64,000 nucleotides of DNA, from positions 15,624,001-15,688,000 of the forward strand of contig CM060731.1 in the NCBI GenBank assembly GCA_030704615.1, given 5' to 3'. How positions within the stretch are numbered: position 1 is the stretch's first letter; each line of letters opens with the position of its first letter. Under the pieces are notes generated by a model. That model made no database searches. It had not been told where the DNA came from and saw only the letters and a program-made list of their open reading frames with translations. The position numbers were made by a program, and so were the translations under genes. Source of the DNA: Takakia lepidozioides (Eukaryota > Plantae > Bryophyta). Shown here piece by piece: positions 30,841 through 58,200 of the stretch.

Positions 30841-31694
30841 GCACGTTTCGGGCACACATCTGCGCCTTCGGGACGATTCTTGCTAATAACTGTATTTAAA
30901 CTCTCTGATCTCGACAGTCTGTTGTCCTCGTGGAAAACAAAATTGCATGAATCCGTGCATTTGGTTCCTTGCTTACAATACATTAGGTTATAGTAAGGGG
31001 GTCGATGAGTGTCTTAAAGCTGTGCTTTTAGATCCACACAAATGAACATTCGTACTTTGCACCCATTTGTCGTACTTCTTTACACAGAGCGCCGAGAGAT
31101 CTGTAGCATCAAAAATGTACATGGACCTTCTGCAGACCTAATTTCAAGTTTCAATCTCCTTCAAATAACTCCTAGACATTTTCCTAGCCAGTAAGCTCCA
31201 AGGATTTTATCATTTCAAACATCGCTCTCGAATTCTGTGATTTTGGGAGACGCCCTTTAGTGGTGATCATTTGTGGAGATCAGTAACAGTGAAGGGACAT
31301 ACAGTACATCTCATTTACCTGTAGTCAGTTTTTTTTCCTAGTTTTGCATCACCACTCCATTCTGAAGGAACGTCTTGCATCCTAACTTCTATCCTCAGCG
31401 GACCATGCCAGGCACCTAGAAACCTTCAGTACTGCAAAGGGAGGGGTGCAGCACCATTGAAGCTAAGTATGAAACTAGGGATGGCCTGGCTACGTCCACA
31501 AGAGCTGACCAACCATGCTCGAACCTGTCATGCTATGGCCGCCGCTGTCATGAGCCTCACGTCGCGTGGAAGAGGAAGATAATAGAAATGATGTTAAGAA
31601 CTTAATGCACACGTTCAACCTCTGACAGGATAGTACGCCGGTTTTGGGCATGTCAAATCTTCCCCACCCTCTCTTGAGAGTGACATGGAACTGA

Positions 31695-31995
31695 AGGAGT
31701 GTAAACTCCAGTCGGGGTTACGCTGGGTTACACAATGGGGAGGGAAACTCCACTTGGGGTTACACTGGGCTACAGGATGGGGAGTGTAACTCCCCTTGGG
31801 GTTACACAGAATGGAGTGTAATAACACTCGGGGTTACACTGGGTTACACGACGGTGTGTGTACTCCACTGGGGGGTTACACAGAATGGAGTATAACTCCA
31901 CTCGTGTAACTCACACTTGGTCTCGAAATTTGATTAAGTATAAAATGGACTAAGAAGAGTTACATGAGAGACCAGGGTTACAGAGGGTTACACCA
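31695..31995. repeat. Degenerate array of ggggttacac / gtaactcc motifs
   Basis: About ten gggttacac-like units interleaved with complementary gtgtaactcc words. Confidence 0.7.
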
Positions 31996-39039: not shown

Positions 39040-41030
39040 ACTGTCATCTAAGTCCAAGTGCAATCCCCTATGTATCCACGTGCATCTCTTATGTCGGGCG
39101 TAAGCACAAAGACATATTCCAAATATTCTAAAAGATTCTGGAGGATATGCGTTTGCGAAACCAAATTGCGCTCACACGATAAGAAATACGAAATTATCTG
39201 AAAATCGTGCTCACAAAAAAAAAAAAAAAAAAAAAATCGTCCAAAGCTTAATTTGCGTGAGCACAAAGACCCACAAATATATCTGCTAGAACTCAAAGAG
39301 CAGCGCACGTAAACAATGTGCATTTGTTAACATTGTGTGTAGAACATCCCCAAGAACCACCCAAAAAATGGGTTTCGCCAACGAAACGCAAACGTTTTTT
39401 TGCTGCCGAAACTTGGTTTCGTGGGCGAAATTGGGGTTTAGTTTTAATTTTAGTTATTTTTAAGGTTCCTCCCTTTTAAGCTCCTTCTGTATGTTTAAGA
39501 TTATATTTAGACACCATGGAGACGCTATAAACGCAGAAAGACCCTATGTCCGTCTACTATATATATTTCCGCTGACATACATATCACCCCTATAACCGCG
39601 GATCCTCCTCATGCGGCGATTTTTTTGTGCTCACGCCATACCAATCCCCCTATGTCGAGACCCATATGTAAAGAATTGAATCAAAGACCAAATGCAATTT
39701 CCTATGACATATCCAAGTGCGTCTCCTACGTCAACCCTTAAGGCCCATCTAAGCCCAAGCGCAATCTCCTATGTATCCATGTGCGGCTCCCATATTGTAG
39801 AGGCCCAAGTGCGACCTCCAGTGTCCAATGTCACCTAAGAGCATCTCCACCGGGGTACACCAAACTACACTGCAACAGTAAAGGACTGCGGCCTCGAACA
39901 CTCCCCTCCCCCACAGGCAACCCCATCAAACTACCTGCACATGTCATTTTTGCTTTTGCACGTGAGGGACCACTTGGACAGACGCCGCCTTACCCTCACG
40001 CCATAAATGCACGCAGCCGTGCTTTTTAGTCTCTCCAGCAGATACCGACCGGGCCTAGAGGGCATGTATCCTGCACCAAAGTACGGGCCCTGGGGGTGCG
40101 GATACCAGGGCCGGGGGCTCATTTACCGTTGCCGTGGCATTTAGGGTCCCCCGGTGGAGATGCTCTAAGTCCAAGTGCAATCCCAAAGCCCACTTTGCTT
40201 TTTGCAATCCCCTTGTCGATGCTTCCTATATTGATATATCCATTTTGCTATTTTTTGCAAATTTCCAGTGACCAAAAGCACTTGAAATTCCAACTCTCCC
40301 ACGTGAAGGGCCAATCACTGCTCCAGGAAAGCCCACTTTGCTATTTCGCGTATTTCTAGCCACCAAAAGTACTCAAAATTCCATATCTCCCACACCGCAG
40401 GTCCAAAAATTATGAGTCCAATCCGCCCCTCCTCATCAAGGGCTTTCGAACGACACTAAGCACCAGGGCTGGGGCCGTGGTTTGGGAGATCTCAGTGACG
40501 CTACAAAACAAAACAAACAAACTAGCTTGCTTCATATATTGACTGGGGTAGCTTGTGCCGTTGGCCCAAGTGCAATCTCCTATGTATCCAAGTACGTCTC
40601 CCACGTCCAGGCCCAAGTGTGACCTCTAGGGTAGCCTTTGCCATTGGCCCATATGCGAAAAAATTGAAATCTAAGACCAAGTTTAATTTCCTATGTCGAG
40701 GCCCATCCAAGCCCAAGTGCAATCTTCTATGTATCCAAGTGCATCTCTTATGTAGAGGCCCAAGTGTCCTCTGTCATCTAAGCCCTAGTGCGATATCCTA
40801 TGTATCCAAGGGCGTCTCCCATGTGCGTCTCCTATGTCAAGGCCCATCTAAGCCCAATGTGCAATCTCCTATGTATCCAAGTACGTCTCCCATGTCAAGG
40901 CCCCATTTTTTTTTTTCATGAACTTATTGAGTAGTAATATCCACTCATTATTGATATGTCTCCCGTCTCTAGGGTAGCTTGTGCCATTGGCCCAAGTATC
41001 CACTATCATCTAAGTCCAAATGCATTTTTT
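39040..41030. repeat. Degenerate repeat field (ggcccaagtgcaatctcctatgtatccaag units) with an embedded GGCGT(A/G)AGCACAAA-ended MITE at ~39097-39637
   Basis: Unit recurs more than ten times; inverted ends ggcgtaagcacaaa / tttgtgctcacgcc. Confidence 0.6.
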
Positions 41031-41794
41031 TTCCACATAGTCTACGACCAGATTTGAACCGGAGATCTTTCCCTTAACCCTTAAACGCCTAGTACTTATT
41101 TTTGACTTTTTCCAAAAACTTGACCCCTGGTGCTAAAAACAGGTGTAATTTTCGAAAAATTTGAAATTTGAAAATTTTGACCGCACACCAGAAGCGTACC
41201 TACCTGCTGCAGGTACATGCCAATTTTGAGGGAAATCAGATGAAAATCCAGAAAATGCCACCGTTGAGACTGGGGCCCTTTTTTGGGACCCACATACCAA
41301 AATTGTAAATTAGAATGAGTAATTTGCAGAAATGGGTGACGGGATGATTTCCAAATGAGTTGATTCTGCTCCCCATTCATCCTGGTGGGATCTCACATCC
41401 ATTGCAGAAAACAAAATGCAAGTTGGACAAAAAATGGGCTGCTGACATTTGTTCAAAGCAGAGTGGGTCAAAATTGAGGATCCAGTGTTCTTTGGAAAAA
41501 TGCCAGTGCTACCTGTACCCTGGAGTGTTTGCTGCAGCAAGCACTTTGCAAAGCAAGATATCCCACCATCCCACTCCTACCCTCCTCACACCAAGGAACG
41601 ATGTGTGAGTAGGGTTTGAACCCACTAAGCTGCCCCAACTGGCAGCTCACACATGAACACAAGGGGGAGGATCCCCCCCTTGTGTGCACCCCCACTTGGC
41701 AAGGGGACTAACCACTAAAGCAATCTACCACCTCTTTGCAGCCATGAACTCACATTGCCATGAATTCTAGCCATGAATTCCAACTGACATTGTC

Positions 41795-43241
41795 TCAAAC
41801 CAGGCTGTGACGTTTCACAAAACAGGTCCCCAAACAGATGCTAACATCTCCACACAAGGCACAAAAAAACCTTTGTCGGGCACCACACTCGACACACTTC
41901 CTTCTCCTAGCACTTTTTTGAGAGAAGTGAAGTGCTCCCGGGTCTGGAACAGAAGCCCCTTCCAAGACAGTTCTCATGGGAGCAACCCACCCGACAATCA
42001 ACCCATTGGCCACTTGAATGTTGAAGAGCATATGAGACCGCGGCTTCCTGTCCTTCTCTTTCATCCAAGCCAGATACAACAAATAAGAATTCACCAGCGA
42101 TGTGTCAATGCTATGAAAGAACAAGCGGTGCGACCACTTGTGATCACGCGTTTGCACGCTGTAGTAGCCCCTCAATTGATCCTGCACATCAACCCCCCTC
42201 ATGTGTTCTTGATAGTGCTTCACAATGGGGGAAGTGGGGACCATGCGGCGAGCACCGTTGTGCCACCGCTCAATGAAGCAATGTGCCCCCACAGGGCTGC
42301 AAGCAGTGCTCAACAATATGACTGGCTTGTTGTCAAACCAAGACAGTGCCACCAATTTGTTAGATCTATGCATGCGGTACTGCATAGTGCCTCTCTCTCC
42401 TCTCTTTCCAAAATCAAGACATGAAGGGAATCCCACCCGAGTTGTCTTCACAGTACCAGTAGCATAGATATTTTGGACAGCCAAGTCATAGAAAAGAATA
42501 GGACTAGTAAAGAAATTATCCATGGTCACTATGTGCCCTTTCCCCTCAAAACCAGCCAGCAATCTGGTTACAACAGAATATCCCTGCCCGTGTGTCAAAT
42601 CAATTGCATCATCACGGCCAAGGTACACCTCCATCTTGTGAACATATCGGCTTTTGGCACCAGCCAAGCACCACCACTTTATACCCCATTTCACTGGTTT
42701 TTTTGCTCATATACTGCTGCAGGTTAGAGTACTTACCTTTGTACTTCACCATCATCTCATCCACACACAGGTTTTGATCGGGTTGCCAGTAGCGAGCATA
42801 CAAGTCATTTTGCTGGTCTAACAACCAACGGGTCTTTGCGATTTTATCATAAGCAGGGGCTGATTTATCCACCTCCACTAACCGGTTGTCCACTAGGTGC
42901 AAACACCTCAAAATTGCTTCCCATCTATTGCGACTCATGATGCGCATAATGGAAGGACACTTGAAGAACTCATTGTTACCTTTCCAGTAACATCTTGTGT
43001 TGGGCAATCTCTTGATTCCCATGAGAATATGAACTCCCAACCACGCCTTCAATTCCACAACACTCACAGGATACCACCACTCTCCCCCCTTCATTTGTCC
43101 CCTTCTATATAAGGTCTGGACATACAGGTTTGTCATTCTGCAGATTTTCCGCATCACAGGTGCCGGCCAGAACAAATTGAAAAAATCTACAGGGAGAGCA
43201 CTATCATCCAAAGGCACCTTATGACCCGTCTCCCCCCCCAC
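41795..43241 (-). pseudogene. piggyBac DDD transposase (PGBD-like), one-base frameshift in the A7 run at 42698-42704
   Basis: FFNLFW, ELKAWLG, IMSRNRWEAILRCLHL, LCVDEMMVKYKG (D1), K(P)VKWGIK, VTMDNFFTSP (D2), MRGVDVQDQL (D3), C-terminal Cys-rich CVEC..CALC..CLGTCF..H. Confidence 0.9.
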
Positions 43242-43679
43242 TCCACGTTACCTGAGGCAGCTCTGTGCACTGTGAATTCCACATGTCATCTGCCAATTTA
43301 TCTTTCGGTGGCCATTCATGCCAAGATTCAGCCAATCATAAAGCCTGAGCTCATGGGCCGCATTTCCAGTGTCCACACAGTAATCCCACAAAGTCTGGAT
43401 CCTGACCAGCATCTGGATTACCTCTCTCTTCCTCTACCGGATCATAGTCAGAGTCCGAGTCACATTCTGTCTCAGATTCAGACCCTACCGTGTTCTCAAC
43501 AACATCATCCAAACCAAGCATGGCACTTACTGTAACTGGCATAGGCTCGTCAAGGTCCACAGGAAGGCAAACATGAGAGGGCACGGTATGCACCCCAAGC
43601 CCAGCAAAGAAGGAGACAACATATGTATCAGACGCACTCACAATATCCCACGACTTGTCCACGACAGTACCATAACCAA

Positions 43680-43851
43680 TGTCGTGCGCATACATATCGC
43701 TACACAACTACATCGCTGTCCAAAACCACACAACACATGTGCACACCACACACTAGTATACCACTAGTCTACCACTAGTCCAGCCACTAGGCTACAACTA
43801 GTCAGTCACTAGGCTGCCACTACGCTGCCCACTATGGCAGTCACTAGTCCA
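43680..43851. repeat. Terminal repeat B2 (direct copy of B1)
   Basis: tgtcgtgcgcatacatatcgc...gtcactagtcca; matches 44185-44368 except for one 12-bp ccactagtccaa unit. Confidence 0.95.
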
Positions 43852-43855
43852 TTAA

Positions 43856-44182
43856 TGATAAAGAAGAAGAATACAAGCACAAGCTCATGCGAGCTCACAA
43901 AGCTGAAGCATAAACTCATGCATATATAACCTCATCACTCAAATACAAGTCAAGCCAAGTGCACCCCACGCCATGGGGAATCCACACTACGGCGCCATAG
44001 CTAGGCGCGGTGAGGCTCAACTCGAGAAAGATGAGCCTCCCGCGCTTGCCGTGAAGATAACCACTCCAGGGCCTAAATCTGCCTTGACCCCTGGATTGAC
44101 ACTTGGGCCAATCCCAAATGTCAATATGTAAAAGCTAGCTATTTCCTAGCTAGTTTCACACTAGTGGTAAAATAACTTGACA
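43856..44182. repeat. Terminal repeat A2 (327 bp)
   Basis: tgataaagaagaag...aataacttgaca; identical by eye to 54936-55262. Confidence 0.95.
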
Positions 44183-44184
44183 GC

Positions 44185-44368
44185 TGTCGTGCGCATACAT
44201 ATCGCTACACAACTACATCGCTGTCCAAAACCACACAACACATGTGCACACCACACACTAGTATACCACTAGTCTACCACTAGTCCAGCCACTAGTCCAA
44301 CCACTAGGCTACAACTAGTCAGTCACTAGGCTGCCACTACGCTGCCCACTATGGCAGTCACTAGTCCA
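44185..44368. repeat. Terminal repeat B1
   Basis: Direct copy of 43680-43851; separated from A2 only by the dinucleotide gc (44183-44184). Confidence 0.95.
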
Positions 44369-44372
44369 CACA

Positions 44373-44384
44373 ATCGCCCCCCTA
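44373..44384 (-). other. Polypurine-tract candidate
   Basis: Element strand reads TAGGGGGGCGAT immediately before TGTG-TGGACTAG, the start of B1. Confidence 0.6.
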
Positions 44385-44632
44385 GCTGGTGCTTAGGTCC
44401 CTCTAAGTCCAGGTAGCCACAAGATGTGATAGTGACCATAGCCTCACTAAGTCCTCCACCACTATCCCTACTACACTCAAACTCGATAGATCAAGAGGCC
44501 GGGTGCAAGAGTTGCCCCATCGTTAGTCGCCGTCTTGCAACCTGTGAACTTGAGCTTGGGATCTCATGTATTGACTCCTATGAGCTTGGCCTCCCATGTC
44601 TTGTTAGCTGCCTCCAGTCATGTCCACTGCCA

Positions 44633-47600
44633 CTATCCCAAGCAGTGTGGACACAACCAATCTCCGTCAGGAACCTTCTCAAGAGGTGGTGTCAAGCATC
44701 CCATATGCCAACCCCTTGAGCATCGATCACACACCAGCATGGTGGCTGCCCCTTTGGCAGACCCACAGAGCATGCACCTCAAACCTGCAGGTACCACTGC
44801 CAAGTTTGGGTCAACTCTGCCATCGACATTGGGAAGGTGACATGGCGCACAATTACGCACATGGTCCTTCCAAGTCATGCCATCCCGACCCTCCAAGATC
44901 AGGACCCCTGAGGGCAACACCTCTCGAACCCTCAGAATAACACGCCCTGCAGTAACATCCAGAGTCGTAGGAGCAGTCTGCTGCAAATAAACATAGTCAC
45001 CAGGGCTAAACCTCCGAACCCCAGGACGATATCCTCCACCACGTATAGTGGCATACCTCAACGTATCACGGTGCTGTGCAATGGCAAGGTTCTCAAAAGC
45101 CATGGGCATGACTTTCTTGAACAACTCTGCACGCTGATCACATGCACGTACCCACACGTCCGGATCGTCAAGGTTAAGGACTTGAGCAGTGTCCCTACGA
45201 ATGGCTGCAGGCAAATCCGGCTCTCGGCCAAAGAGAAGGAAATATGGTGAGAAGGAGGCAAGTGATGCTTGTTTGCTGAACCTGTAGCCCATGGCTAACC
45301 AAGGAACCTGAAGATCCCAATCTCCTAGGTGTCCCTTCTGCAAGCCATACTTGCGCAAACCCCTCTTCACCGTCTGAACAACTCTCTCTGCTAAGCCATC
45401 GGCCTCAGGATGATCCCGAGAAGTGGTGCGGTGGTCTATCAAGGCTTTATCACACAAAGCCTGAAACTCCCCCAAGAACTCTCTCCCTTGGTCCGTGAGT
45501 ACCTCAGCTGGAGCACCAAATCGGCTAAGCACACGATCCAAGAATGCATACGCAGCCCCCTCACTAGCCTTGTCAGGCAATGGAACCAACTCAATCCACT
45601 TGGAGAAGTGCTCCACCATCACCAACACATATCTGTGGTGGCGCATAGTCAGTGGCAACGGTCCTGCGAAGTCAAGACTCCACCTGTAGCCCAATCCCAT
45701 GATAGGTAAAGGATGCAACTGTGGTGTAGGGGCGTTGAATGAAGCACGCACCCTGTCACACACCATGCACCTAGCCACAAACTGTTGCACCTCTGTATGC
45801 ATACCACGCCACCAATACTGCCCCTGCAGTAAACTGTGAGTGCGTCGCACTCCAAAATGCCCCAACTCCTCATGGGCATGCCGCACTAACCGTGCACGCT
45901 GTGTGGGGTGAGGCACAATCCTCACCCGACCATCCTCCCACACTCGAAGTAGGTGTATCCCCTCCCACTTGAACCTCTTGGCTCGTTGCAGGATCCGATC
46001 CCTCTCCCTGGCAGTCACAATGGCTGCCGTGTCTCCCGTGCGGAGGTAGTCCAACACAGCCGAATCCTCATGTATATCTCTGGCACCACCTAGCTCATCA
46101 CTAGCCTCAGGGTCCTCAGACACTCCGTCTACAGTCATCCCTGTTGTAGGTCCAATCTGACCTCCCGATGCCAAGATACACAAAAATGCAGATGCGTGCC
46201 ATCCCGGCACCATCTCCTCGTCCGTCTCACCATGCCACCGAGCTCCAGTGTCATCCTGCTGGCTCATGCATGGATTGCGACTCAATCCATCCGCATCCCG
46301 ATTGACCAAACCCGGTCGATGCACAACCTGAAAGTCATACTCCTGGAGTATAAGTGCCCACCGTGCAAGCTTCCCCGTAAGCTTGTCTGACTCCATCAAC
46401 CACTTGAGTGGCTGGTGATCCGTGACAAGGGTGAAAAGATTGCCGTATAGATAGCACCTGAAGTGTGCCACGGCCCACACTGCAGCTAAGCACTCTCCCT
46501 CATATGAGCTGTACTTAGCCTCTGCAGCGTTGTTCGAGCGGCTAGCGTAAGCCACTACGAACTCTCTTCCCTCATCATCCACCTGTGTGAGCACCGCTCC
46601 AAGCCCCAGCATGCTCCAATCCGTATGCAGCTGAAAGGGACGCCCCCTGATAGGTCGTCTCAAGATAGGCGCCGAGGTCAACCTCGCCTTGAGCTCTTGA
46701 AAAGCTCGTTCCTGCTCATCTTCCCACTGCCACTCCTGGTCCACCTTGGTCAGCTTGGTTAGAGCCTTTGCAATGGTACTAAATCCCTTGACAAACCGTC
46801 TATAATAGTTTGCCAACCCCATGAAAGCTCGAACTCGGCTCACATCCGTGGGGCGTGGAATTTGTGCAATGGCCTCTACCTTAGTCTGCTGTACCCCCAA
46901 TCCTCCAGGATATATCATGTGACCCAGATACTCAATCTGGTTGTGGAAAAACTTGCACTTCCCCGGATGCAACTTCAATCCGTGCGCTCTCAAGCGCTCC
47001 AATACCACCTGAAGGTGTCTCTCATGCTCCTCCATCGTAACACTAAAGATGATGATGTCATCTATGTAGCACCGAGCAAAGTCCACCCCTGCTAGAATCC
47101 TATCCATGACTCTCTGAAACTCTGCAGGAGCATTCTTAAGCCCAAATGGTAAGAACCGCCACTGATATAGGCAATCCTTGCCGTGCTCATTGATCCCCCA
47201 GAATGCCGTCTTCTGCTTGTCCGCCTCCTTGATTGGCAACTGGTGATATCCGGATCGTAAATCCAAAGTGCTAAAGGCCTTAGCATGCCCGATGGCATCA
47301 AAGATCTCCTCTGGTGTTGGCATGGCATACTTATCGGACTTGGTCTGACGATTTACAGGCCGGTAATCACCGCACATACGTCTCTCCGTCCAATTGCCAT
47401 AGACATCCTTCTTGGCTGGCATCACTGTGGCTGAAGCATACTCTCCACCAGAGAGCTCCACCAAACCTGCCTCCCAGAGATCTTGAGTCCTCATCTGAAT
47501 CAAAGACCTCTCCATGTCACTGTATCTATAGGGTCTCCGAAAGATTGGCGTGTCAGTGGCCAACTCAATACGGATCTCTTGACCCTTCAGTGCTCCCAAG

Positions 47601-47767
47601 TCCTTCAAACTGAAGGCAAAGCAATTCCTGTAAGCCCTCAGGAACCGCCGTATACGTCGTCTCTCTCCTCCGGTGACAATGGGTCCAATGTCAGGCTCCC
47701 AATTGTCCTCCGTAACTACAACCTTAAGTCCAGTGGGCTTAGAGGTAGAGGACGCGTCCCGTGGTTG
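44633..47767 (-). CDS. Pol: reverse transcriptase, RNase H, DDE integrase, C-terminal PHD finger; in frame with upstream ORF behind one TAG
   Basis: RMCGDYRPVN, LDLRSGYHQ, LPFGLKNAP, YIDDII (RT); LHTDWS, YSSYEGE, VTDHQPL (RH); H..GH..CMVC, WSLDFAGP, LTDQGREF, GLAER (INT); CMLC..CDRC..HMGC..CPHC (PHD, 44642-44779). Confidence 0.95.
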   Translation of the reverse strand, partial: QPRDASSTSKPTGLKVVVTEDNWEPDIGPIVTGGERRRIRRFLRAYRNCFAFSLKDLGALKGQEIRIELATDTPIFRRPYRYSDMERSLIQMRTQDLWEAGLVELSGGEYASATVMPAKKDVYGNWTERRMCGDYRPVNRQTKSDKYAMPTPEEIFDAIGHAKAFSTLDLRSGYHQLPIKEADKQKTAFWGINEHGKDCLYQWRFLPFGLKNAPAEFQRVMDRILAGVDFARCYIDDIIIFSVTMEEHERHLQVVLERLRAHGLKLHPGKCKFFHNQIEYLGHMIYPGGLGVQQTKVEAIAQIPRPTDVSRVRAFMGLANYYRRFVKGFSTIAKALTKLTKVDQEWQWEDEQERAFQELKARLTSAPILRRPIRGRPFQLHTDWSMLGLGAVLTQVDDEGREFVVAYASRSNNAAEAKYSSYEGECLAAVWAVAHFRCYLYGNLFTLVTDHQPLKWLMESDKLTGKLARWALILQEYDFQVVHRPGLVNRDADGLSRNPCMSQQDDTGARWHGETDEEMVPGWHASAFLCILASGGQIGPTTGMTVDGVSEDPEASDELGGARDIHEDSAVLDYLRTGDTAAIVTARERDRILQRAKRFKWEGIHLLRVWEDGRVRIVPHPTQRARLVRHAHEELGHFGVRRTHSLLQGQYWWRGMHTEVQQFVARCMVCDRVRASFNAPTPQLHPLPIMGLGYRWSLDFAGPLPLTMRHHRYVLVMVEHFSKWIELVPLPDKASEGAAYAFLDRVLSRFGAPAEVLTDQGREFLGEFQALCDKALIDHRTTSRDHPEADGLAERVVQTVKRGLRKYGLQKGHLGDWDLQVPWLAMGYRFSKQASLASFSPYFLLFGREPDLPAAIRRDTAQVLNLDDPDVWVRACDQRAELFKKVMPMAFENLAIAQHRDTLRYATIRGGGYRPGVRRFSPGDYVYLQQTAPTTLDVTAGRVILRVREVLPSGVLILEGRDGMTWKDHVRNCAPCHLPNVDGRVDPNLAVVPAGLRCMLCGSAKGAATMLVCDRCSRGWHMGCLTPPLEKVPDGDWLCPHCLG

Positions 47768-50700
47768 CTATGCTGCAACCTCTTGAGCAGTACTCCCTAC
47801 CTGCTCAGTCAATGACAAGGCATCATCCTGCCCCATCATCTCATCCTTGAGGACCTCCTCAACTCGAGAAGAATCCCCAACCTCATCCATCACAGCCGCC
47901 TTGGCTGCCAACTCCCTCTGAACCTCGAGCACCTCCCACGTGTGCCATGGATGCATGCACCCCGTGGTCCTCATATGCTCGCCCCCACTCACTGCCTGTA
48001 CCGTCTCGGTAGGCAGAGAGACCATTGAGGGAAGTGTATTCCGCACTCTGCGTTGCTCAGCTAGAGCCAAGCTGATAATCCAGGTCAAGCAATTGAGATC
48101 CATTGCTTGCCCCAACACTTGACGACGTGATGCCTCAGAAAGAGACGACACCGCCGTGGTACCAGTGGTAAAACCCATTGCCCGCTCACGCTCGTCAGCA
48201 TTAGGCTCCACTAACTGCTGCAACTGAGCATCCCACAGGAGGCCAGGTCCACTATCCCGGAAAGCATGCGATCCTGGGAAGCTGAGCAGTGTAGGTAATG
48301 CTGCTCGTGGTTGACCCACCTTGTTGACCACTGCCAAAGGCGAACGGTCATCGTGTCTCACACGTTGAGACTGCCTCCCTGTGTCCAGAATGTTATCCAC
48401 TGTGAGATGTGCTGGCCGCTGCACCCCATCAAATGCACGCTTGAGCAGTGCGGGTGGCATCATGTTAGTCCACCATAGCCGTGGACGATGAGCCCGTGAC
48501 CCCACTGTAGCTGCATCTAGCAACACTGCTGACCCAAGCCACGACCGGACTTGATGCACACTGGCCATCACCCTGGCCCGAGAATCGCCCATCAGTGGCA
48601 CATTCTCCAAGATGTATGCTGGAGATACAGCTTGATGAAGCTGCAAGTGGCGCAAAACCCGCACCATCTCCCAAAACAGACCCGACCTCGAGTCTCGCAA
48701 TCCATTGCCATGCCCGGCTGATGAATGCCCTTGGCAGGGCCAACCTGCCACTACCAGATCAATGGAGCCAACCCGCTCCAAATCCTGCGCCCCCAGCAAC
48801 GAAATGTCTGCTGGCAAGGCCTGCTGATATCCACGAATTGCAGACACCGACAACAACTCAGGGTACCGCTGCACCAACTGAGCAACATGGCGAAGTGAAA
48901 CGCGTCGTGCAGTCTCATCCCTCTCCACATACAGGTAACGCCGAACTCGTACACCTGCCTGTAACACAGCAGCCAATCCGGTGCTGATCCCGCCAAACAA
49001 GTCCAGAAGACAAATGCCTTCATCCGGAGACTGCCACACAATAGGTGTGGTGTCCAATGGAGACAATTGAGGTGGTCCTGGTGCAATCCCCACACTCTCC
49101 TCCTCTCCTGACGGTACAAAAGCCTCCACCCAGGCTTGTTGCACCCGTCGATCAGCATCCCGCTGCAAATCCTTGCTCGTGCCCCACAATGGAGTCTGAG
49201 CAACCATGGTAGGCAACTCCGCCATACCATACATGTCATCCTGCTCTCCCGGAGGTGGTACATCCTCTGAATGAGCATTGCCCTCAAGCAACTCTCTAGG
49301 CCAACTCACTGCCGCTGTGAATGCTGCTAGTGTCGGCATCTTGCCTCGCTGGGCAACCGCAACTCCTCCTATGAACGTCACAGGGAGCTGCACACGCCGG
49401 CCCTCCCCTGACTGCCATGCAGGCCTATAGGAAGCTGACTCCTCCCAAAAATCCAGGGTGAAGCCCATGGGGTACAACACTGCCCCACCAACCAGGACAT
49501 CGTATGAGACTGCGTCTGTCACAATGGCCTTGGCTCGCATCACTGAGCCATCTGTAGGGTGATCCGGCCGTAGTCTGATAGCCAACTCATGCCGTGTCAT
49601 GCCCCGAGCCTGCTCCGATCCTCCCAGAGACGTCTGTATCTGGAAAGGACAAGGCTCCATATCCGCCTCCGTGAGGCCCAAGCCTGCAATAGCAGCTCTG
49701 CCCAGCATCAGTGGCTGAGCTCCCGAGTCCAACAAGACTCGCAGTGGCCGGTACCTCTTGCCTGCCGGTCCACTCAAACAGAAAATGCCATCCTGGTTGT
49801 CTAACATGACAACTCCAGGTGTCACCATGGCGCGCTCAATGGCTGGCCTAGCTGGCAGCTCCATCAACCTGGCAGCTGCAGCTTGCCATGGCGCCGCCGT
49901 GGCAGTCTTGACCCTCAAATCCGAGGATCCCTCCGGCACTACACCTCCCACTATCTCCGCAGAAGATGAAGTAACCTCCCCACTCTCACAGAGTGTAGCT
50001 GCCAGCCTGAACACCTCAGCTGGTCTTACCCCCGGCGTCGCAATCATGGTAGCCGAGAACAATGGAGCCTGGCACACAGATGTGGCCGCTCCTAGCAGCA
50101 CACTAGCTGCCGTAGCCTTGGCAACACTAGGTAGTGGTGCTACCCGTGTAGCTCTCCCCAATGGCATAGTAACCTCCGCCTCGGTAACAGTCGGGCGAGA
50201 ACTAGGTGCCATGGATGGCGTCGACACTGTCTCCGCCAATGTGAATGACTGAGGAAGCCTAGCCTGACGGCTTGCCTCCCCACGCTGTGGATCCAACTCC
50301 ACCTCTGCACCTCGTGGCTCAGGAACTCGTGCTGCTCCTCGAGTCACGGCTGCAGCAGACTCCACCTGCACTAGTGGTAGTGCTGCTCCACACATGAATC
50401 CCATGCCTCCCATATCTCCTCCCTCAGGAGCAGGAGGTGGACCATCCGGCCTTAGAGCCGGTACCACCTGAGCTGTAGCCATGGCAGCGAGCCTCTGCTC
50501 TAGCTGCTGAAGCCGGTTGGCCATGCCTTGGTCAACACCCTGACCTCCGCGTCCTTGGCCACGTTGAGCTTGCCCTTGGCCTGCACCTCGTGGCTGGCCA
50601 CCTCGTCCCCTCTGGGCTGCTCCACCTCGCCCCCGGCCACCATTGTTCCCTTGGAACTGGCCTGGGCGCAACTCAGGATGCAAACCATAACACTGGCCTC

Positions 50701-51937
50701 TCCATGCCCGTGTTGCCACAATGCCCACACTGTAACTGTGCAGGCTGTGCATGTGCCGGCCCTTTGCCTCCCTCTGGAAATCCTTCTTGACATGGGGTCC
50801 TCCACATGTCCAGCACACCACATCCGCCCGTTGTTGGCCAGCAAATGAAGGGAGAGACCCCTGCATCTGAGGTCCTCTCTGCCCTTCCCTGAGCTTCACC
50901 TGAGCCCCCTTGTTGCCTTGAGCACGTTGAGGTAGTGGTTGGCTAGGAGCACCACTACCCCGTGGTGTCTCCTTAGCAAATCCCACCATGACCACTCGTT
51001 CCTCCACCATGTTGAGCTCTATCCGCTCTGCCAGCAAAAACACATTTGCTAAGGTGGGTTGGGCCGCTTGTAGGAGAGTTGCATCCCGCACCCTTCTCCT
51101 CAGCTCCTTGTCCAATATCCCATACCAGAATTGGACTGCCTGAGCTTCCGTAACCCCTTGGGTTACATTTATCAAGCGCCTCATGCGAGTGAAAGCCTCC
51201 CTCAAGCTCTCGGTCGGCTTCCGTTGGAACTCTTGCAAGCTCCGCAACTTCTCTGTCCTCACCCCTTGGTAGTTCCCTCTCAACTCTTCGAAGAACTCCA
51301 CAACAGGGTTGAAGGCAGGCACGGGTGCTAGTGCTGGTGCGGTAGTGGCTTGGGTGGACGTCGTAGCTACTGTACCACCAGTCCCACTGCTGCTTGCTGA
51401 AGCTGCCGGTGCAGCGGCAGGTGTAGCCACTGCCCTCGTGGCTCTAGTGCCCCTAGTGATGGAGACATAGTCGGGTGACCAGTACATCCTCCACTCCTCG
51501 ATCTCAACCTCATGCCCCCGCCTGAACTCATGGTAATCATCCATAGGCGGCCCCTCAAGGTGCTGAAACAGCCCTTTCCATGCCATGAACGGCGTAAATA
51601 GTTGTGGATTGCGCATTTGCTGCAAATCACACCAACTATCAAACTCTTGGATAAAATCATCCAACTCAATGGTGCCCACCGCCCCAGAGTACCTTCGTGG
51701 CCCCTTGGTAGCTCCATACATCTCCTCCATTGTGTCCCACAACAATGGCAAAGAAACAACTTGCACCGCCGGTATGAGCCCTCCTGATTCACAATCCGAA
51801 TCAGAACCTTCCGTGGAAGACACAGGAGGTGAAGGTGGCCTAAACCGCACACCTCGTCTCGTGTACCCACTAGTATCGCTAGTGCTCGAACCGGCACTGT
51901 CCCCAGCAACTAGTGGCACCTCCGTGTTGACACTCAA
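47768..51937 (-). CDS. Gag - aspartic protease - cytosine-5 DNA methyltransferase polyprotein (first ATG at 51730)
   Basis: Gag-like FQRKPTESLREAFTRMRRL and CWTCGGPH knuckle; protease VLLDSGA (~49715-49744); C5-MTase motifs I-X at ~48060-49020. Confidence 0.92.
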   Translation of the reverse strand: MSVNTEVPLVAGDSAGSSTSDTSGYTRRGVRFRPPSPPVSSTEGSDSDCESGGLIPAVQVVSLPLLWDTMEEMYGATKGPRRYSGAVGTIELDDFIQEFDSWCDLQQMRNPQLFTPFMAWKGLFQHLEGPPMDDYHEFRRGHEVEIEEWRMYWSPDYVSITRGTRATRAVATPAAAPAASASSSGTGGTVATTSTQATTAPALAPVPAFNPVVEFFEELRGNYQGVRTEKLRSLQEFQRKPTESLREAFTRMRRLINVTQGVTEAQAVQFWYGILDKELRRRVRDATLLQAAQPTLANVFLLAERIELNMVEERVVMVGFAKETPRGSGAPSQPLPQRAQGNKGAQVKLREGQRGPQMQGSLPSFAGQQRADVVCWTCGGPHVKKDFQREAKGRHMHSLHSYSVGIVATRAWRGQCYGLHPELRPGQFQGNNGGRGRGGAAQRGRGGQPRGAGQGQAQRGQGRGGQGVDQGMANRLQQLEQRLAAMATAQVVPALRPDGPPPAPEGGDMGGMGFMCGAALPLVQVESAAAVTRGAARVPEPRGAEVELDPQRGEASRQARLPQSFTLAETVSTPSMAPSSRPTVTEAEVTMPLGRATRVAPLPSVAKATAASVLLGAATSVCQAPLFSATMIATPGVRPAEVFRLAATLCESGEVTSSSAEIVGGVVPEGSSDLRVKTATAAPWQAAAARLMELPARPAIERAMVTPGVVMLDNQDGIFCLSGPAGKRYRPLRVLLDSGAQPLMLGRAAIAGLGLTEADMEPCPFQIQTSLGGSEQARGMTRHELAIRLRPDHPTDGSVMRAKAIVTDAVSYDVLVGGAVLYPMGFTLDFWEESASYRPAWQSGEGRRVQLPVTFIGGVAVAQRGKMPTLAAFTAAVSWPRELLEGNAHSEDVPPPGEQDDMYGMAELPTMVAQTPLWGTSKDLQRDADRRVQQAWVEAFVPSGEEESVGIAPGPPQLSPLDTTPIVWQSPDEGICLLDLFGGISTGLAAVLQAGVRVRRYLYVERDETARRVSLRHVAQLVQRYPELLSVSAIRGYQQALPADISLLGAQDLERVGSIDLVVAGWPCQGHSSAGHGNGLRDSRSGLFWEMVRVLRHLQLHQAVSPAYILENVPLMGDSRARVMASVHQVRSWLGSAVLLDAATVGSRAHRPRLWWTNMMPPALLKRAFDGVQRPAHLTVDNILDTGRQSQRVRHDDRSPLAVVNKVGQPRAALPTLLSFPGSHAFRDSGPGLLWDAQLQQLVEPNADERERAMGFTTGTTAVSSLSEASRRQVLGQAMDLNCLTWIISLALAEQRRVRNTLPSMVSLPTETVQAVSGGEHMRTTGCMHPWHTWEVLEVQRELAAKAAVMDEVGDSSRVEEVLKDEMMGQDDALSLTEQVGSTAQEVAA
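48060..49020 (-). other. C5-cytosine methyltransferase catalytic domain inside the retroelement polyprotein
   Basis: LDLFGGI (I), YVERD (II), ADI (III), DLVVAGWPCQ (IV), DSRSGLF (V), ILENV (VI), AHRPRLWWTN (VIII), ERERAMGF (IX), LGQAM (X), in unpermuted order. Confidence 0.93.
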
Positions 51938-52659
51938 CCGGTCATGAACATGTCCCTAACCCCCTCTTCACAAGGTAACCGGGTAGAGAACCTGTTGCGG
52001 CTTATGGTTTGGAATACTAAGTTCCTAACATAGCCTACACCTGTACCTGCATCCACCGCAAGCACTCCTATGGTTGGCTGGTCATCACCTCCAACCTCAC
52101 CACAGGAGAAACAATGATGGTCTGGCTGGTCATCACCCCAGCCTCACCATCGACAGCATGCTCTAGGACTGGCCGGTGATCAAATCCGGACCAATCACCT
52201 ATAAAAACAAGCGCCCACACAAAACTAGCATGGCGCACAGTCAAGCATGCAGGTATGGAGGGGATCCAAACACAAGAAATCAGATCGACAACTCCCCCAC
52301 ACCAAAAACAACTCCACGGTGTTGCTCCTGCAAGGACACCCCAGCCCAAACCCGGACTGACTCTTGCCTCCACCTACGGAAAGGTCTTGGCCTAATGAGA
52401 GGGTGGAAACTACGAGGAAGAGAAGCTAAAGCAATGCCTAACCCCAGCATGCTCTCATCCCAACACTCTGCCTCTCCTCTCTACCCTCACTTGCATGACC
52501 ATGGGAATATCATGAAGATACTCCTCAAACCGCCCTCCACGAGCTTCAAAATTTGGCCTTCCAGACCACATGCCAGTCCTTAGGCAGTCCACCAGTGCCT
52601 CCATGAGTCAGCACAGGTCAACACGGTCCACCACAGACCAGCACAGGCCTACACAGCTC

Positions 52660-54045
52660 ACTGGTCACAGCCGTCACAGTCCCACAGGCCACTGGGCACA
52701 GCCTGTCGCAGCCCCTCACAGCCTGTCACAGCCTCAAAGGCCTCAGGCACGGCCTGTCACAGCCCGTCACAGCCCGTCACAGCCCCAAAGGCCATGGGCA
52801 CGGCCTGTCACAGCCCCTCACAGCCCGTCACAGCCCCAAAGGCCTCAGGCACGGCCTGTCACAGCCCGTCACAGCCCCAAAGGCCTCAGGCATGGCCTGT
52901 CACAGCCCCTCACAGCCCCTCACAGCCTCAAAGGCCTCAGGCACGGCCTGTCACAGCCCCTCACAGCCCGTCACAGCCCCAAAGGCCATGGGCACGGCCT
53001 GTCACAGCCCCTCACAGCCCGTCACAGCCTCACAGGGCACAGGGCACAGCCTGTCACAGCCCATCACAGCCTGTCACAGCCTGTCACAGCTTGCCACAGC
53101 CCGTCACAGCCCGTCACAGCCTCAAAGGCCTCAGGCACGGCCTGTCACAGCCCCTCACAGCCCGTCACAGCCTCAAAGGCCTCAGGCACGGCCTGTCACA
53201 GCCCCTCACAGCCCCTCACAGCCTCAAAGGCCTCAGGAACGGCCTGTCACAGCCCCTCACAGCCCGTCACAGCCCAAAGGCCATGGGCACGGCCTGTCAC
53301 AGCCCCTCACAGCCCGTCACAGCCCCAAAGGCCTCAGGCACGGCCTGTCACAGCCCCTCACAGCCCCAAAGGCCATGGGCACAGCCTGTCACAGCCCGTC
53401 ACAGCCCCACAGGCCTCAGGGCACAGCCTGTCACAGCCCCGCACAGCCCGTCACAGCCCCAAAGGCCACTGGGCACAGCCTGTCACAGCCTGACACAGCC
53501 CGTCACAGCCCATCACAGCTTGCCACAACCTGTCACAGCCCGTCACAGCCCCACAGGCCAGAGGGCACAGCCTGTCACAGCCCATCACAGCCCATCACAG
53601 CTCCACAGGGCACAGGCACAGCCCATCACAGCCTGTCACAGCTTGCCACAGCCTGTCACAGCCCGTCACAGCCCCACAGGCCAGAGGGCACAGCCTGTCA
53701 CAGCCCATCACAGCCCATCACAGCTCCACAGGGCACAGGGCACAGCCTGTCACAGCCCATCACAGCCCATCACAGCCTGTCACAGCTTGCCACAGCCCAT
53801 CACAGCCCGTCACAGCCCCACAGGCCACTGGGCACAGCCCGTCACAGCCCGTCACAGCCCCACAGGGCACAGGGCACAGCCTGTCACAGCCCCTCACAGC
53901 CCGTCACAGCCCCAAAGGCCTCAGGCACGGCCTGTCACAGCCCCTCACAGCCCGTCACAGCCCCAAAGGCCTCAGGCATGGCCTGTCACACCCCTCACAG
54001 CCCGTCACAGCCTCAAAGGCCTCAGGCACGGCCTGTCACAGCCCC
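52660..54045. repeat. ~1.4-kb minisatellite of 10-bp tcacagcc-core units with higher-order repeats, in the retroelement 5' leader
   Basis: Around a hundred gtcacagccc/ctcacagccc/atcacagccc units punctuated by aaaggcctcaggcacggcct or aaaggccatgggcac. Confidence 0.97.
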
Positions 54046-54919
54046 TCCCTTCCTTCCTTGCACTCCCACACCTGAAAGTGCAAGCCTTCACCAGGCTGAT
54101 AGCATGCTCCACACATGCATTGCCCTCACATAAGGGAAGTCAGCCCTTCCCTCTTCCTTGCTTGCCCTCCAAGCTTGAAGATGGAAGCTTCAAGGAGCTG
54201 AATACATGCTCCACACATGCAACCTCTTCACACAAGAGATATCAGCCCCCTATCTTGGCTCCTTGGCTCCTTGATGCTCTCTAAGACAAGACTAAGCACT
54301 CCATAGCCTTTGCCAAGCTCCTGAAACCCTAAGGCTTACATTTCCAGCCACAAGACACTTCTCTTGTGGTGCAAGAGCTCTTCTTCCAAGCTCTGTAACC
54401 CTAGGTGTACATTCCATGGCCTTGCCGCACCTCTTAGCTCCTGTTCCAGCCCTGCTCTCGCCATGACAAGAGCCCTCTCAATGCTGAAGCTCGAGATTGA
54501 AACCCAATCTCACCATACTCCACAAAGTGCACTGATTTGCCCCAAGCCAAATCAGCCCTTTCGCTTGGTCTTGCAATCCTTCACACAATGACAGCTCGCA
54601 TTCCCAAGTCCAGTTCTCAGCTTTGCCACCAAAGCCACTATAACCTGCTCTTGACTGGTCCTCTTCCCAATCGTGCTTGCTCATGCATGTACACAATCTG
54701 AAACCATCAAGGTGCTCTGGAATTACCTACAGTATGGTGCTTTCATCTCTGAAGCTGAAGATCGAATGCCAAGGTTTACCACCTCGTAACCCACATCGCC
54801 TCCGCTTCTAACAACCAAGAGCTCCACGGTGCTCCTTGCATAACAACTTGGTTTCTCTCAATCTCAAGCAAAAACCACAAGTGCTACAACTAACTCGTAT
54901 CTAGCACTCATAGATACGA

Positions 54920-54936
54920 GCTCATCTTTCTCGAGT
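54920..54936 (-). other. Self-priming primer-binding-site candidate
   Basis: gctcatctttctcgagt abuts repeat A1 and is the perfect 17-nt reverse complement of actcgagaaagatgagc inside A (55100-55116; also 44020-44036). Confidence 0.7.
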
Positions 54937-55262
54937 GATAAAGAAGAAGAATACAAGCACAAGCTCATGCGAGCTCACAAAGCTGAAGCATAAACTCATG
55001 CATATATAACCTCATCACTCAAATACAAGTCAAGCCAAGTGCACCCCACGCCATGGGGAATCCACACTACGGCGCCATAGCTAGGCGCGGTGAGGCTCAA
55101 CTCGAGAAAGATGAGCCTCCCGCGCTTGCCGTGAAGATAACCACTCCAGGGCCTAAATCTGCCTTGACCCCTGGATTGACACTTGGGCCAATCCCAAATG
55201 TCAATATGTAAAAGCTAGCTATTTCCTAGCTAGTTTCACACTAGTGGTAAAATAACTTGACA
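54936..55262. repeat. Terminal repeat A1 (5' end of the retroelement)
   Basis: Identical by eye to 43856-44182; not followed by B. Confidence 0.95.
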
Positions 55263-58200
55263 CCAAATTCTTGGACGTTGGAAGAAGAAGCCATGTTAGG
55301 CAGGTACAAATGGTTCATTGCAACCTTTACAGTGGATCCCAGCACCCCTAGATCTTCCCAAGATTGGCTATGACCTGCAACATCTCTAGCAACTTGAGAA
55401 CTACGCAGAGAATATGCAAGACCCGAATCAAAACCAGAAATTGAACTCGCAATGTCATCAAGTCTCACATGCCCATAAATCGTTCTTACCTCTGGACCTT
55501 GCTACTGCCTTCAGTCTCATCGTTGGTGGCAGATGAGGATCCATCAAAATCAGGCCACACAGATAGCCTCAAACACTCATTTACCTCGGGAGAAAAGCCA
55601 TGTGGATCACCTTCCTCTTTACGATCAACCCACCCGAGAATCTCCGCAGCCTGACGACGATATAGGTACCGAAAATTGGCTGGTTTTGGAAATGCGGGCC
55701 ACTTCATCCGCTTGGCCCTCTTCAAGCACATAAGATAATCCTCATTCAAACACCCAATCAATTGGGCGACTTGCTCTAGAGAGGCGCCCAAAGCGCGAGC
55801 CCAATTGCCAATAACAAGAGACTCTTCTAGCAAATGCGCAGGAGCTGCTGGAGGCATGTCTGCAGAACCCATGTTGCCTCTCCTATATAGTCACCAGTAA
55901 CGGGCGTAACTAAGAGCCACTTCGCCTCGCGGCTACTGCCCCCTCTTGGGGATGGGCCCTATCTAAGCTGCCTAGGATAATAACTTAGCACCCAACAACA
56001 GTTCCCAGGAAATATTGCCAAATGTGAAAGGAATCCATACCAAATCGTAACAAACTATAAGATTAATCAGATAAGCCTTGAAATCAGCGGCCCAAGATAA
56101 CCAGCATTCCAAATTGTAATGAGCTATGAAATCACATAAGCCTCAAAATCAGCAGCCCCGGACAACAACATACCAAATTGTGACGAACTATGATTATTCC
56201 CAAGTATAAGCCTCAAAATCAGAGTCCCCCAATAACCAGCATACCAAATTGTTGTGAACTACCTATGTATGATTCCTAAGCCTAGAAATGTCCGATCTGG
56301 AGTACAAAATGCAGATAAACCAGAACCCACTGAGGGGGGAGGAGATGAAAAAAAAAGGGTTAAGTGTTAAGTACCTGGATTATATAAGGAAATACACAAC
56401 TCCACAATTCAACTGAGTCTTGTTCATTCCACACAAACAAAGGAAACAAGACTTGTTCAGTCCACAAAACAAAGGAAACAAGACCACACAAACAAAGAAA
56501 ACAAGACTTGTTCATTCATTCAACACAAAGAAAACCAGGGGCAGATGGAGATGGAGAGGGAGAGGGCCCACCTGGGCTTGGGCTGGCATGGCACTCATAA
56601 AGAGGGAGGGCGCTCGTGGAAGAAGACGGGTCAGGTAGCAAAGCGTGTCCGTGCAGCGGCGGCGTTGAATCCGGCGCACCGGGGTTATTATGCCCCACAG
56701 CGATCCACTACCTACCGACCTGCTTGTCAGATGCAAAAGTCTTCCTGCTCTGCAAGATGCCATCGGTGGCATGGACGAACGACTGAGGACGGAGCAGTGA
56801 TCTCGTGCTGCAACCGACCTCCGACTTCTCCTTGAGTTACGGCAAACTTTGAGGAGCTGCCATGGCTTGGTGGGGGTTGTAGCAAGTATTGAAGGAGGAG
56901 CTCTTGCATAATTTCACCTCTCGTGATGGAAGTCCACTGTTGGACGCAAATGTGCGAGTAGGAAACAAACACTGAAATTTCGATACAATCAACAACGTAA
57001 CTTGTTCTGACCACTATTGTACCCTAACAAACACTGCACGTTATGCTGCAATCAAAATCCCCAAATAGACATATGGCCACACTTACTTCTCCACTGCAAC
57101 CACAACTCCTCAAGTTTCTCATTTCACATCAGATGGTTTAACCTCATTGATCATCAATGCAGGCACGTGCACCACCGTTCTCAGCCGTGTGGGGGCCACA
57201 TGCAGTCGCTATATGTTCAGAACCTTGTACATGTCTACTGCGGCTTGGTTGATTGGTGAAGACTTCGGTGTAACCTCTTAGTACTACTCACTTCTGTCTG
57301 TTTCTCTGGCGGTGAGGCATCTCTACGCCTCTTCTGGCGCGTCTCCACCTCAGTATCGGGCTCTACATATCTGATACTGTGGATGCGAGAAGCTTATGGG
57401 TTGAAAGTGAAGCTCTGAATTGATGTATCATTGACCCTCAACAGCAGCATTGCTCCTGATGCTCCTTAGAGCTTGTACTCTGAAAGAGGGTTGGTTCAGG
57501 TTTCTCCTTGTCGCAGTTGCAAGATACTTAACATGCTACATCGAAATCGCGAGATTCCTCCAACTCTGCTATCAATCTTGCACCTAAATTTGTTGAGGTT
57601 AGTTTCTCTTGGTCATGATCTGAGGCATACTGGGACTTGCAGAGTAAAGGGTGGTGGGAGGGTATATGTTGTACTCGAGATCTTCATCCTTGAGATTCAT
57701 AAGCGACTGAAGGTCTTGCTAGGCCCGGGGTCCAGGATGAGAGAAGAACTTCCGGTTTCTCTTTCTATGGCTTTGTATTTTAGATGGACTAGGCTCGAGC
57801 GAGGAGAGGGATGACGACCGCGGGAGCAGCCAGTCATCCTCAAGCTAGGTTGCTCATGAATCAGAATTGACGGATATGTAGGAACACTTCGCTTCATGGA
57901 AAGAAAAATCCTGAGCGATCTTCCGAGAGTTGCAACTCCGTGAACTCTTAGAGATGGGTGCAAAATGTTTTCAAAGTCTCGGGTTCGGTGTGGAGGATGA
58001 ACCCACATGCGATGATGTGTGCAGAACTTATAATGGGATCATGACATACTCGAATGGTGTCACCGAATCTGAATCAAGCTAGCGAAAGTCTCATCCTCAA
58101 GACTACTGCACAACTGGGGATTTGGACCCTGACATGTATCCAGATTTCGGACGTCAGATGCGCCTACGGGAATCAAAATTTGCAGGCAGAATTAGACGAG

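Follow-up and report, generated by a model that had tools for sequence, protein, structure and literature searches.

A methyltransferase-bearing retrotransposon in Takakia lepidozioides

The window analysed here is a stretch of 64,000 nucleotides from Takakia lepidozioides (GenBank assembly GCA_030704615.1, contig CM060731.1). Its minus strand carries a Ty3/gypsy retrotransposon that encodes, between its protease and its reverse transcriptase (RT), a cytosine DNA methyltransferase (DNMT) domain. The coding frame, running from 51955 to 44633 on that strand, is open throughout except for a single stop, which divides it into two open reading frames (ORFs). The coding features, the outer limits and the insertion site are as follows.

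43680-55262, minus strand: the whole Ty3/gypsy retrotransposon, 11,583 bp, with TG...CA ends read off the sequence
55263-55266: 4-bp target-site duplication CCAA on the element's 5' side, from the sequence
43676-43679: 4-bp target-site duplication CCAA on the element's 3' side, from the sequence
52665-54047: tandem array of 10/51-bp units in the 5' leader, from the sequence
47771-51730, minus strand: ORF1, consisting of Gag, protease and DNMT, 1320 aa from the first ATG (51730), by frame analysis and Pfam
50690-50815, minus strand: nucleocapsid zinc-knuckle region, garbled by three 1-nt gaps while the frame stays open, by comparison with other copies
49358-49792, minus strand: aspartic protease with LLDSGA at 49735, a weak Pfam match (E=0.073) whose position is conserved in relatives
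48071-49015, minus strand: DNMT3-type C5 cytosine methyltransferase domain, by Pfam, PDB sequence search, AlphaFold, Foldseek and VIA-align
47762-47770, minus strand: in-frame stop (TAG at 47768-47770) in the readthrough-type context TAG CAA CCA, which fits CAR-YYA, by comparison of relatives
44633-47767, minus strand: ORF2, consisting of RT, RNase H, integrase and PHD finger
46913-47383, minus strand: RT, in ORF2
46337-46726, minus strand: RNase H, in ORF2
about 45188-45907, minus strand: integrase with HHCC and D-D(35)-E motifs, in ORF2
44642-44776, minus strand: PHD finger, closest to the PHDs of CHD4 and KDM5B, in ORF2

Assignment to Ty3/gypsy is based on the domain order Gag-protease-RT-RNase H-integrase, on an RT of Ty3 type with Ty3 Gag-Pol as the top PDB match (6.5e-96), and on a DDE integrase, TG...CA ends and a CCAA duplication accompanied by an empty site. 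The protease, weak in this copy, is matched by PF13650 at 5.6e-6 in the relative P0030. Pfam detected no tyrosine recombinase in ORF1 or ORF2, in which it found rve and H2C2, and the element therefore falls outside the DIRS/PAT group. Two whole long terminal repeats (LTRs) do not form its termini; instead, the repeats are split in the order A-coding-B-A-B. The 1.4-kb array of the 5' leader (52665-54047) is C-rich with many CHG and CG sites, and could be a methylation-sensitive control region.

The element was inserted into a broken piggyBac-type transposase, in the 5' part of its coding sequence (41795-43679, minus strand, continuing to the right of 55266), with PF13843 in two frames, an acidic N-terminal stretch up to the insertion and a TTAA-CCCT end at 41074. 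A contig of the independent sequencing run X5 joins both flanks without the element; because the element sits inside a broken piggyBac, this empty site may represent another allele or a paralogous locus. Summed contig depth in that run was about a hundredfold higher over the element than over the flank, a depth that is not a copy number. An assembly chimera was rejected based on the empty site, the target duplications and the same anatomy across dozens of loci.

With no substitution in 499 bp of repeats, the insertion is likely recent. In this copy, the DNMT, RT and integrase motifs are intact, but the nucleocapsid is not. Three single-base gaps (at about 50690-50780) relative to most other copies garble both zinc knuckles and put the second in another frame; two knuckles are present in seven of nine relatives checked. 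The window copy may thus be packaging-defective or locally mis-assembled.

The methyltransferase domain and the stop that follows it

The full set of C5-methyltransferase motifs claimed in the initial annotation was confirmed within 48071-49015. The motifs lie in canonical order, with I (LDLFGG) at 49006, II (YVERD) at 48931, IV (WPCQ) at 48742, VI (LENV) at 48610, VIII (AHRPR) at 48493, IX (ERERAMGF) at 48193 and X (LGQAMD) at 48115. The domain keeps every catalytic residue (Cys, Glu and Arg). When 36 sequences were aligned, the catalytic Cys, the Glu of ENV and both Arg of motif VIII were each at least 90% conserved, and the catalytic Cys is retained in 72 of 75 related loci, most of them decayed. 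The HMMER comparison with PF00145 that had been suggested as a check returned E=1.7e-12 and 47.9 bits, above the cut-off of 22.

Sequence matches in the PDB were ranked as DNMT3A (1.9e-11), DNMT3B, DRM (5.5e-6) and M.HhaI (5e-4), and a family profile raised the DNMT3A match to 2e-28. The AlphaFold model of the domain (pLDDT 94.4) had DNMT3A as its top Foldseek match (1.4e-19), and VIA-align gave Z scores of 28.7 for DNMT3B (root-mean-square deviation 2.7, 279 residues aligned), 27.3 for DNMT3A, 25.1 for M.MpeI, 16.8 for MET1 and 9.4, over 141 residues, for DRM2. The circular permutation typical of plant DRM was not found, and the DRM alignment was limited to residues 28-153 of 357. Judged by sequence and modelled fold, the domain is an unpermuted DNMT3-fold C5 methyltransferase with DNMT3 as its nearest relative and with predicted catalysis; PDB matches, fold scores and motif order bear out the earlier description as DNMT3-like and unlike DRM. 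An origin from DRM, CMT or MET1 was rejected because of their lower sequence and fold scores. The alignments give no prediction of the sequence context of methylation.

A search of 1.84 billion representatives returned 267 matches at E<=1e-30. The top species-labelled relatives were Marchantia polymorpha proteins (60-77% identity) and one Sphagnum fallax protein, followed at greater distance by Closterium, Monoraphidium and Hariotina, the last two among the chlorophyte-type matches. RT is present in 19 of 21 long matches scanned, with the DNMT between RNase H and integrase in 16 and before the RT in three. In a large group of elements, represented by proteins P0064, P0069, P0074, P0269, P0040 and others, a DNMT of this family follows RNase H and precedes integrase; those with a species label are from chlorophytes, and the domain has accordingly moved a single time. 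Trees of DNMT and RT were compared for 109 elements, using retroelement domains only. The 22 elements with the DNMT before the RT constitute one clade, with support of 0.999 by DNMT and 1.0 by RT; it includes, as a nested group, the Marchantia elements and those with the stop (0.987; 0.998 apart from locus L041).

The ratio of nonsynonymous to synonymous substitution (dN/dS) in the DNMT was 0.12 for the unsaturated pair of related loci L021/L022, 0.10-0.12 in comparisons with L035 and 0.07-0.08, near saturation, for the window copy with L017/L019. Other computable between-lineage pairs ranged between 0.07 and 0.20, two pairs being saturated, and decayed sister copies gave 0.6-0.9, the level to be expected once a copy has inserted. 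Of the 29 best-supported coding differences seen in sequencing-run copies (from a biased listing of 40 of 940, which does not serve as a test of selection), the shared ones were synonymous in 13 of 22 cases and the window-private ones in 3 of 7. The purifying selection on the domain and its agreement with the RT tree identify it as ancient and co-inherited with the RT, and not as a recent capture. The initial annotation had named a domain confined to this copy, neutral evolution and a recent host capture as grounds for abandoning its proposal; the many relatives and the between-lineage dN/dS values dispose of the first two. As for the third, retroelement homologs occur across green plants, and the DNMT follows the RT in trees of retroelement domains. 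That a host DNMT3 or DRM gene was recently or neutrally captured is scarcely credible and largely refuted. The high dN/dS of the decayed sister copies would suit such a capture, as would the absence of host DNMT3s from the trees; however, the close homologs are all retroelement proteins, spanning liverwort, moss, Closterium and chlorophytes, the between-lineage dN/dS is low, and DRM is permuted and scores far lower.

The DNMT had been placed in frame between protease and RT. The frame is indeed the same, but the TAG at 47768-47770 separates the DNMT from the RT. We examined 80 related loci, several of them near-duplicates of one another: 41 have DNMT and RT in one frame, 17 have a frameshifted linker, and one anchor is absent in 22. 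A TAG or TAA followed by CAR stands at the same place in all 41 in-frame relatives and in the window copy (42/42). The six bases 3' of the stop are CAACCA in the window and L006, CAGTTA in L021 and L022, CAATCA in L035 and mostly CAACCC in the peat-type family, in which 50 of 51 have a stop at that place; the full CAR-YYA fits the window, L006, L021, L022 and L035, and the peat-type family has CAR-YY-C. The linker peptides around the stop are unalignable between lineages, yet the stop and CAR are kept. As a background, CAR follows 229 of 5531 stops in the window and CARYYA follows 7 of 5531. Many database proteins terminate 56-149 residues beyond the DNMT domain. In Closterium and several other relatives, a single open frame is found and the stop is absent; since the Klebsormidium DNMT also shares the ORF of the RT, the stop looks derived. 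An inactivating stop was rejected because its position is identical across lineages with saturated dS.

According to the text available of the readthrough literature, CAR-YYA, a plant-virus signal of tobamovirus type, is sufficient on its own to direct readthrough in plants, and retroelements generally need a Gag to Pol ratio of about 20:1 (PMC2754532, PMC2194720). The RT-RNase H-integrase-PHD part would very probably arise by such tobamovirus-type readthrough. Gag-protease-DNMT is then likely the major product and Pol the minor one, and the DNMT would be made at the level of Gag because it lies on the Gag side of the conserved stop. The position of the stop predicts the DNMT as a bulk component of the particle, unlike the single-ORF algal versions, and lends support to the packaging with Gag that had been proposed initially.

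Splicing or re-initiation could also bypass the stop, and Pol might then lack the DNMT; we regard this as improbable. The window, L006 and the peat-type family all have AG/GTT 9 nt 5' of the stop; in the last, an ATG also stands two codons past the stop, and some Marchantia and Sphagnum gene models fuse DNMT to RT. Ogre elements splice the corresponding region. However, no ATG follows the stop in L006, L021, L022, L035 or the window, where the first Met is ORF2 residue 85. Furthermore, the conserved letters lie 3' of the stop, and a contig of the possibly-RNA run X12 crosses it ungapped, which is weak evidence. ORF1 would in any case still end at the stop, and a Gag-level DNMT holds unless an intron removes it.

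Split repeats, and the proposed integration route and role of the methyltransferase

The two repeats of the element, A and B, are arranged with the following priming and junction features.

54936-55262, minus strand: repeat A1, 327 bp, likely holding the promoter and the R and U5 regions; identical to A2 at 327/327 positions
43856-44182, minus strand: repeat A2, identical to A1
44185-44374, minus strand: repeat B1, with 0 mismatches to B2 and one 12-nt gap
43680-43855, minus strand: repeat B2, the 3' terminus of the element; its join with A2 is a likely fossil circle junction, based on the sequence and related loci
44181-44186: internal B/A junction CA-GC-TG, a palindrome and likely integrase site, from the sequence
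44375-44383, minus strand: polypurine tract immediately before B1, with the same tract before B in relatives
54920-54936, minus strand: primer-binding site of self-priming type (no tRNA-type TGG start), overlapping the last base of A1, from the sequence
55100-55116, minus strand: likely start of transcription and self-primer, whose 17 nt can pair with the primer-binding site, from the sequence

In this A-coding-B-A-B order, repeat A2 lies between the two copies of B. Ordinary 327-bp LTRs were rejected because no target duplication was found at the outer ends of the repeat A copies. Duplications of 4 bp occur in all six related loci with both ends (five distinct insertions). Among 18 complete 3' ends of related loci, seven have B-A-B and 11 have B alone; divergence is higher among the B-only copies (nearest-neighbour 0.089 vs 0.062, p=0.05), which may have arisen by later deletion or reflect a subfamily. 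The A/B join is clean in most other copies of the sequencing runs. The CA-GC-TG junction is the same or changed by one to three letters in 10 related loci, and is kept even in L021 and L035, at about 50% domain identity. A search of viral contigs with the 14-nt junction returned 78 matches, all of them lacking an element domain, and these are ascribed to chance. Another gypsy family, distinct from this one but likewise equipped with a PHD finger, has its 3' end at L067:13258-15250; that end, too, is of B-A-B form, and its junction reads CAGTTG.

A self-complement of 16-17 nt, from the primer site to the middle of A, occurs in three lineages with differing sequences, and L021, L023 and L044 have the same self-primer arrangement with a different sequence. 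Each of these three has a TATA-like word about 26 nt upstream of the self-primer; it is clear in L021 and L023, but no clear one stands in the window.

The element acts like an LTR element with permuted ends. Because the primer site follows A1 and the polypurine tract precedes B1, reverse transcription should define an LTR of B+A. Self-primed reverse transcription would, with good probability, give linear B-A-coding-B-A DNA. Its ends would be joined, and the integrase would reopen the circle at the B/A site before the coding region, giving A-coding-B-A-B, a course that we somewhat favour. A staggered cut at CA-GC-TG would leave the usual two-base overhangs, and A-coding-B-A-B would be the only arrangement whose next transcript again carries R at each end. 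The sequence suggests that the integration ends come from the internal CA-GC-TG of a reopened two-LTR circle; in the part of the foamy-virus work available, the two-LTR junction is a palindrome that the viral integrase cleaves (PMC1180852). The structure of the ends speaks for a DDE integrase acting at an internal site, probably via circles usually deemed dead ends. LTR finders that expect two terminal repeats likely miss such elements.

With the copying mechanism of PAT elements as general background, A-coding-B-A-B could instead be copied in PAT-type DIRS fashion, with the internal B-A junction as template and no end-joined circle. We consider this unlikely, although the repeat order is shared with SymbioDIRS and KnitGypsy, the mirror form A-B-A-coding-B, which is absent, would be accounted for, and the more diverged B-only copies may be later deletions. 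However, in two families the A/B join lies where A ends at the primer site and B starts at the polypurine tract, as LTR-type priming predicts, and a DDE integrase and 4-bp duplications are present while Pfam finds no tyrosine recombinase.

As to function, we propose that this young copy belongs to an ancient Ty3/gypsy lineage of green plants, in which a Gag-level DNMT would be released by the protease inside the particle and would methylate the new cDNA; the support is positional and evolutionary, and we give this proposal an even chance. The cytosines of the cDNA would be methylated before integration, so that insertions would be born methylated, a step on which our judgement is equally balanced. 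Camouflage and self-regulation, put forward in the initial annotation, would be possible purposes of such methylation. The related SymbioDIRS-Dnmt3 domains methylate CG de novo in yeast, according to the text available (PMC5890265).

Several observations weigh against this picture. The CpG depletion of the element (observed/expected 0.51-0.61) is no stronger than that of the neighbouring DNMT-less piggyBac (0.43-0.44) and thus leaves no self-methylation footprint; as it is not diagnostic, depletion was rejected as such a footprint. The Klebsormidium domain gave no methylation in yeast, a result that its authors call inconclusive in the text available (PMC5890265). The nucleocapsid of the window copy is garbled, and the congruence of the trees is partial, with 32 of 50 supported DNMT splits recurring in the RT tree and L041 misplaced in the latter. 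RNA structure 3' of the stop is not conserved (z -0.5 to -2.8 in six sequences, with no consistent fold), and the largest related family has CAACCC, an incomplete CAR-YYA, followed by an in-frame ATG. Finally, the mirror form was found in 0 of 20 5' ends, though a circle has two equal sites; this asymmetry is unexplained unless through selection, the only account that the circle model would offer, as only A-coding-B-A-B could be copied again.

Alternatively, the DNMT might be a nuclear enzyme whose substrate is chromosomal DNA, be it that of the insertion site, of older copies or of loci of the host, and might limit the spread of the family or shape local chromatin. The integrase bears a chromatin-reading PHD finger nearest to those of CHD4 and KDM5B, this copy sits inside another, broken transposon, and a host-beneficial slowing is among the options listed by de Mendoza et al. 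in the text available (PMC5890265). However, the domain is on the Gag side and is fused to the integrase only in the readthrough product, and a trans benefit common to all copies would be harder to keep under per-lineage purifying selection. We assign this role a low probability.

A further and quite doubtful possibility is that the DNMT serves integration, by marking the CG beside CA-GC-TG and so deciding which of the identical sites the integrase opens. This CG by the B end (ACGACA) is kept in the window, the peat-type family, L021 and L035 despite a CpG-poor coding region, the choice of site is one-sided, and DNMT and split repeats co-occur in Klebsormidium in the text available (PMC5890265). 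Yet recognition by the integrase might by itself have fixed the CG, and the element end at L067 has B-A-B with TG at that place. We can also conceive, very tentatively, of self-methylation and permuted-end integration as one machine, in which a capsid-level DNMT3 would hemimethylate the cDNA and the mark would guide the integrase's choice of site in the circle. If true, a retroelement's own DNA methylation would be a strand signal for circle-based DDE integration, recently active in land plants.

Why retrotransposons keep cytosine methyltransferases has been an open question since 2018, and the hosts known so far are difficult experimental organisms. A young family with close relatives in the model liverwort Marchantia makes the question testable by genetics and methylomes. 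In addition, ORFs of such elements can be expected to inflate counts of host DNMTs.

Elsewhere in the window, two single-ORF S-domain (G-type lectin) receptor kinase genes (20107-22329 and 58771-61026, plus strand) lie in a 96-99% identical duplicated block, about 38.6 kb apart; their best near-full-length species-labelled match is from a lycophyte (43%), with closer matches up to 69%. S-domain receptor kinases are a family of land plants. In 39052-40895, a 43-bp repeat occurs in six dispersed copies together with a pair of 51-bp inverted repeats (39835-40169), and these are probably remnants of small transposons; 31683-31872 is a short tandem repeat rich in GGGTTACAC. At L041:8460-8900, interstitial TTAGGG arrays adjoin a truncated copy of the element.

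Comparison with known systems

Among the papers found in the full-text literature, in which subscription papers are largely uncovered, such elements are described from algae only; there was no description of a DNMT-encoding gypsy element in a land plant, no account of a stop between DNMT and RT (stops of other gypsy families being partly checked) and no mechanism for the split repeats. Marchantia is unmentioned in the text and supplements searched of de Mendoza 2018 (PMC5890265), and the literature covered yielded no description of a chlorophyte Gypsy-DNMT3. An opinion paper, Morozov 2019, holds that land plants such as tracheophytes have no transposon-encoded methylases (PMC6338049). One supplement file of Sarre 2025 gave no match, though its trees may contain such sequences, and nothing on this element was found in the parts covered of 10.1101/363937, PMC6453930, PMC8557442, PMC11982613, PMC11963269 and PMC9985172.

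The initial annotation's suggestion of a new kind of element was overstated: the element is a land-plant variant of the KnitGypsy-Dnmt3 type of the alga Klebsormidium nitens, with two mechanistic twists, the stop and the ends. In the text available (de Mendoza 2018, PMC5890265), KnitGypsy-Dnmt3 shares the gypsy domains, an unrearranged intronless DNMT3-type domain, purifying selection and the DIRS-like repeat order A-coding-B-A-B. It differs in that its DNMT lies in the ORF of the RT, whereas the window element has a conserved readthrough-type stop between them, and that text has no mention of a self-priming site, internal CAGCTG ends, a 4-bp duplication or a PHD finger. The likeness rests on the published description, no K. 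nitens protein being among the species-labelled DNMT matches. SymbioDIRS-Dnmt3, as described in the same available text (PMC5890265), likewise has a DNMT3-type domain and A-coding-B-A-B repeats; in contrast, it has a tyrosine recombinase, no DDE integrase and a dinoflagellate host.

Other systems share single features. Tf1/sushi and the plant Tcn1, self-priming gypsy elements, have a primer site complementary to their own LTR instead of a tRNA, but have ordinary LTRs, and in the available text of that survey methyltransferase and PHD occur 0 times, so the likeness is by priming only (PMC6317226). Tobamovirus-type readthrough shares a stop followed by CAR-YYA, and the rice gypsy element RIRE2 is cited as a readthrough candidate in the available text of the same sources (PMC2754532, PMC2194720); in the window element, by comparison, the stop follows protease and DNMT, which puts an epigenetic enzyme into the abundant product. 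Foamy virus also has an integrase that opens a palindromic junction to give processed ends, although its site, in the text available, is the end-to-end junction while that of the window element is inside the LTR defined by reverse transcription (PMC1180852). The EpiLTRs of Cymbomonas and Euglena are LTR elements with a DNMT and a chromatin reader, but their DNMT is DNMT4-related and is accompanied by DAM and a chromodomain; the available part of that preprint treats streptophyte Gypsy-DNMT3 as distinct from EpiLTRs and names no land plant (bioRxiv 10.64898/2026.05.21.726589). Beyond the initial annotation, the window element thus adds to the DNMT3-bearing gypsy type a readthrough-type stop, split repeats with internal integration ends, a self-priming site and a PHD finger.

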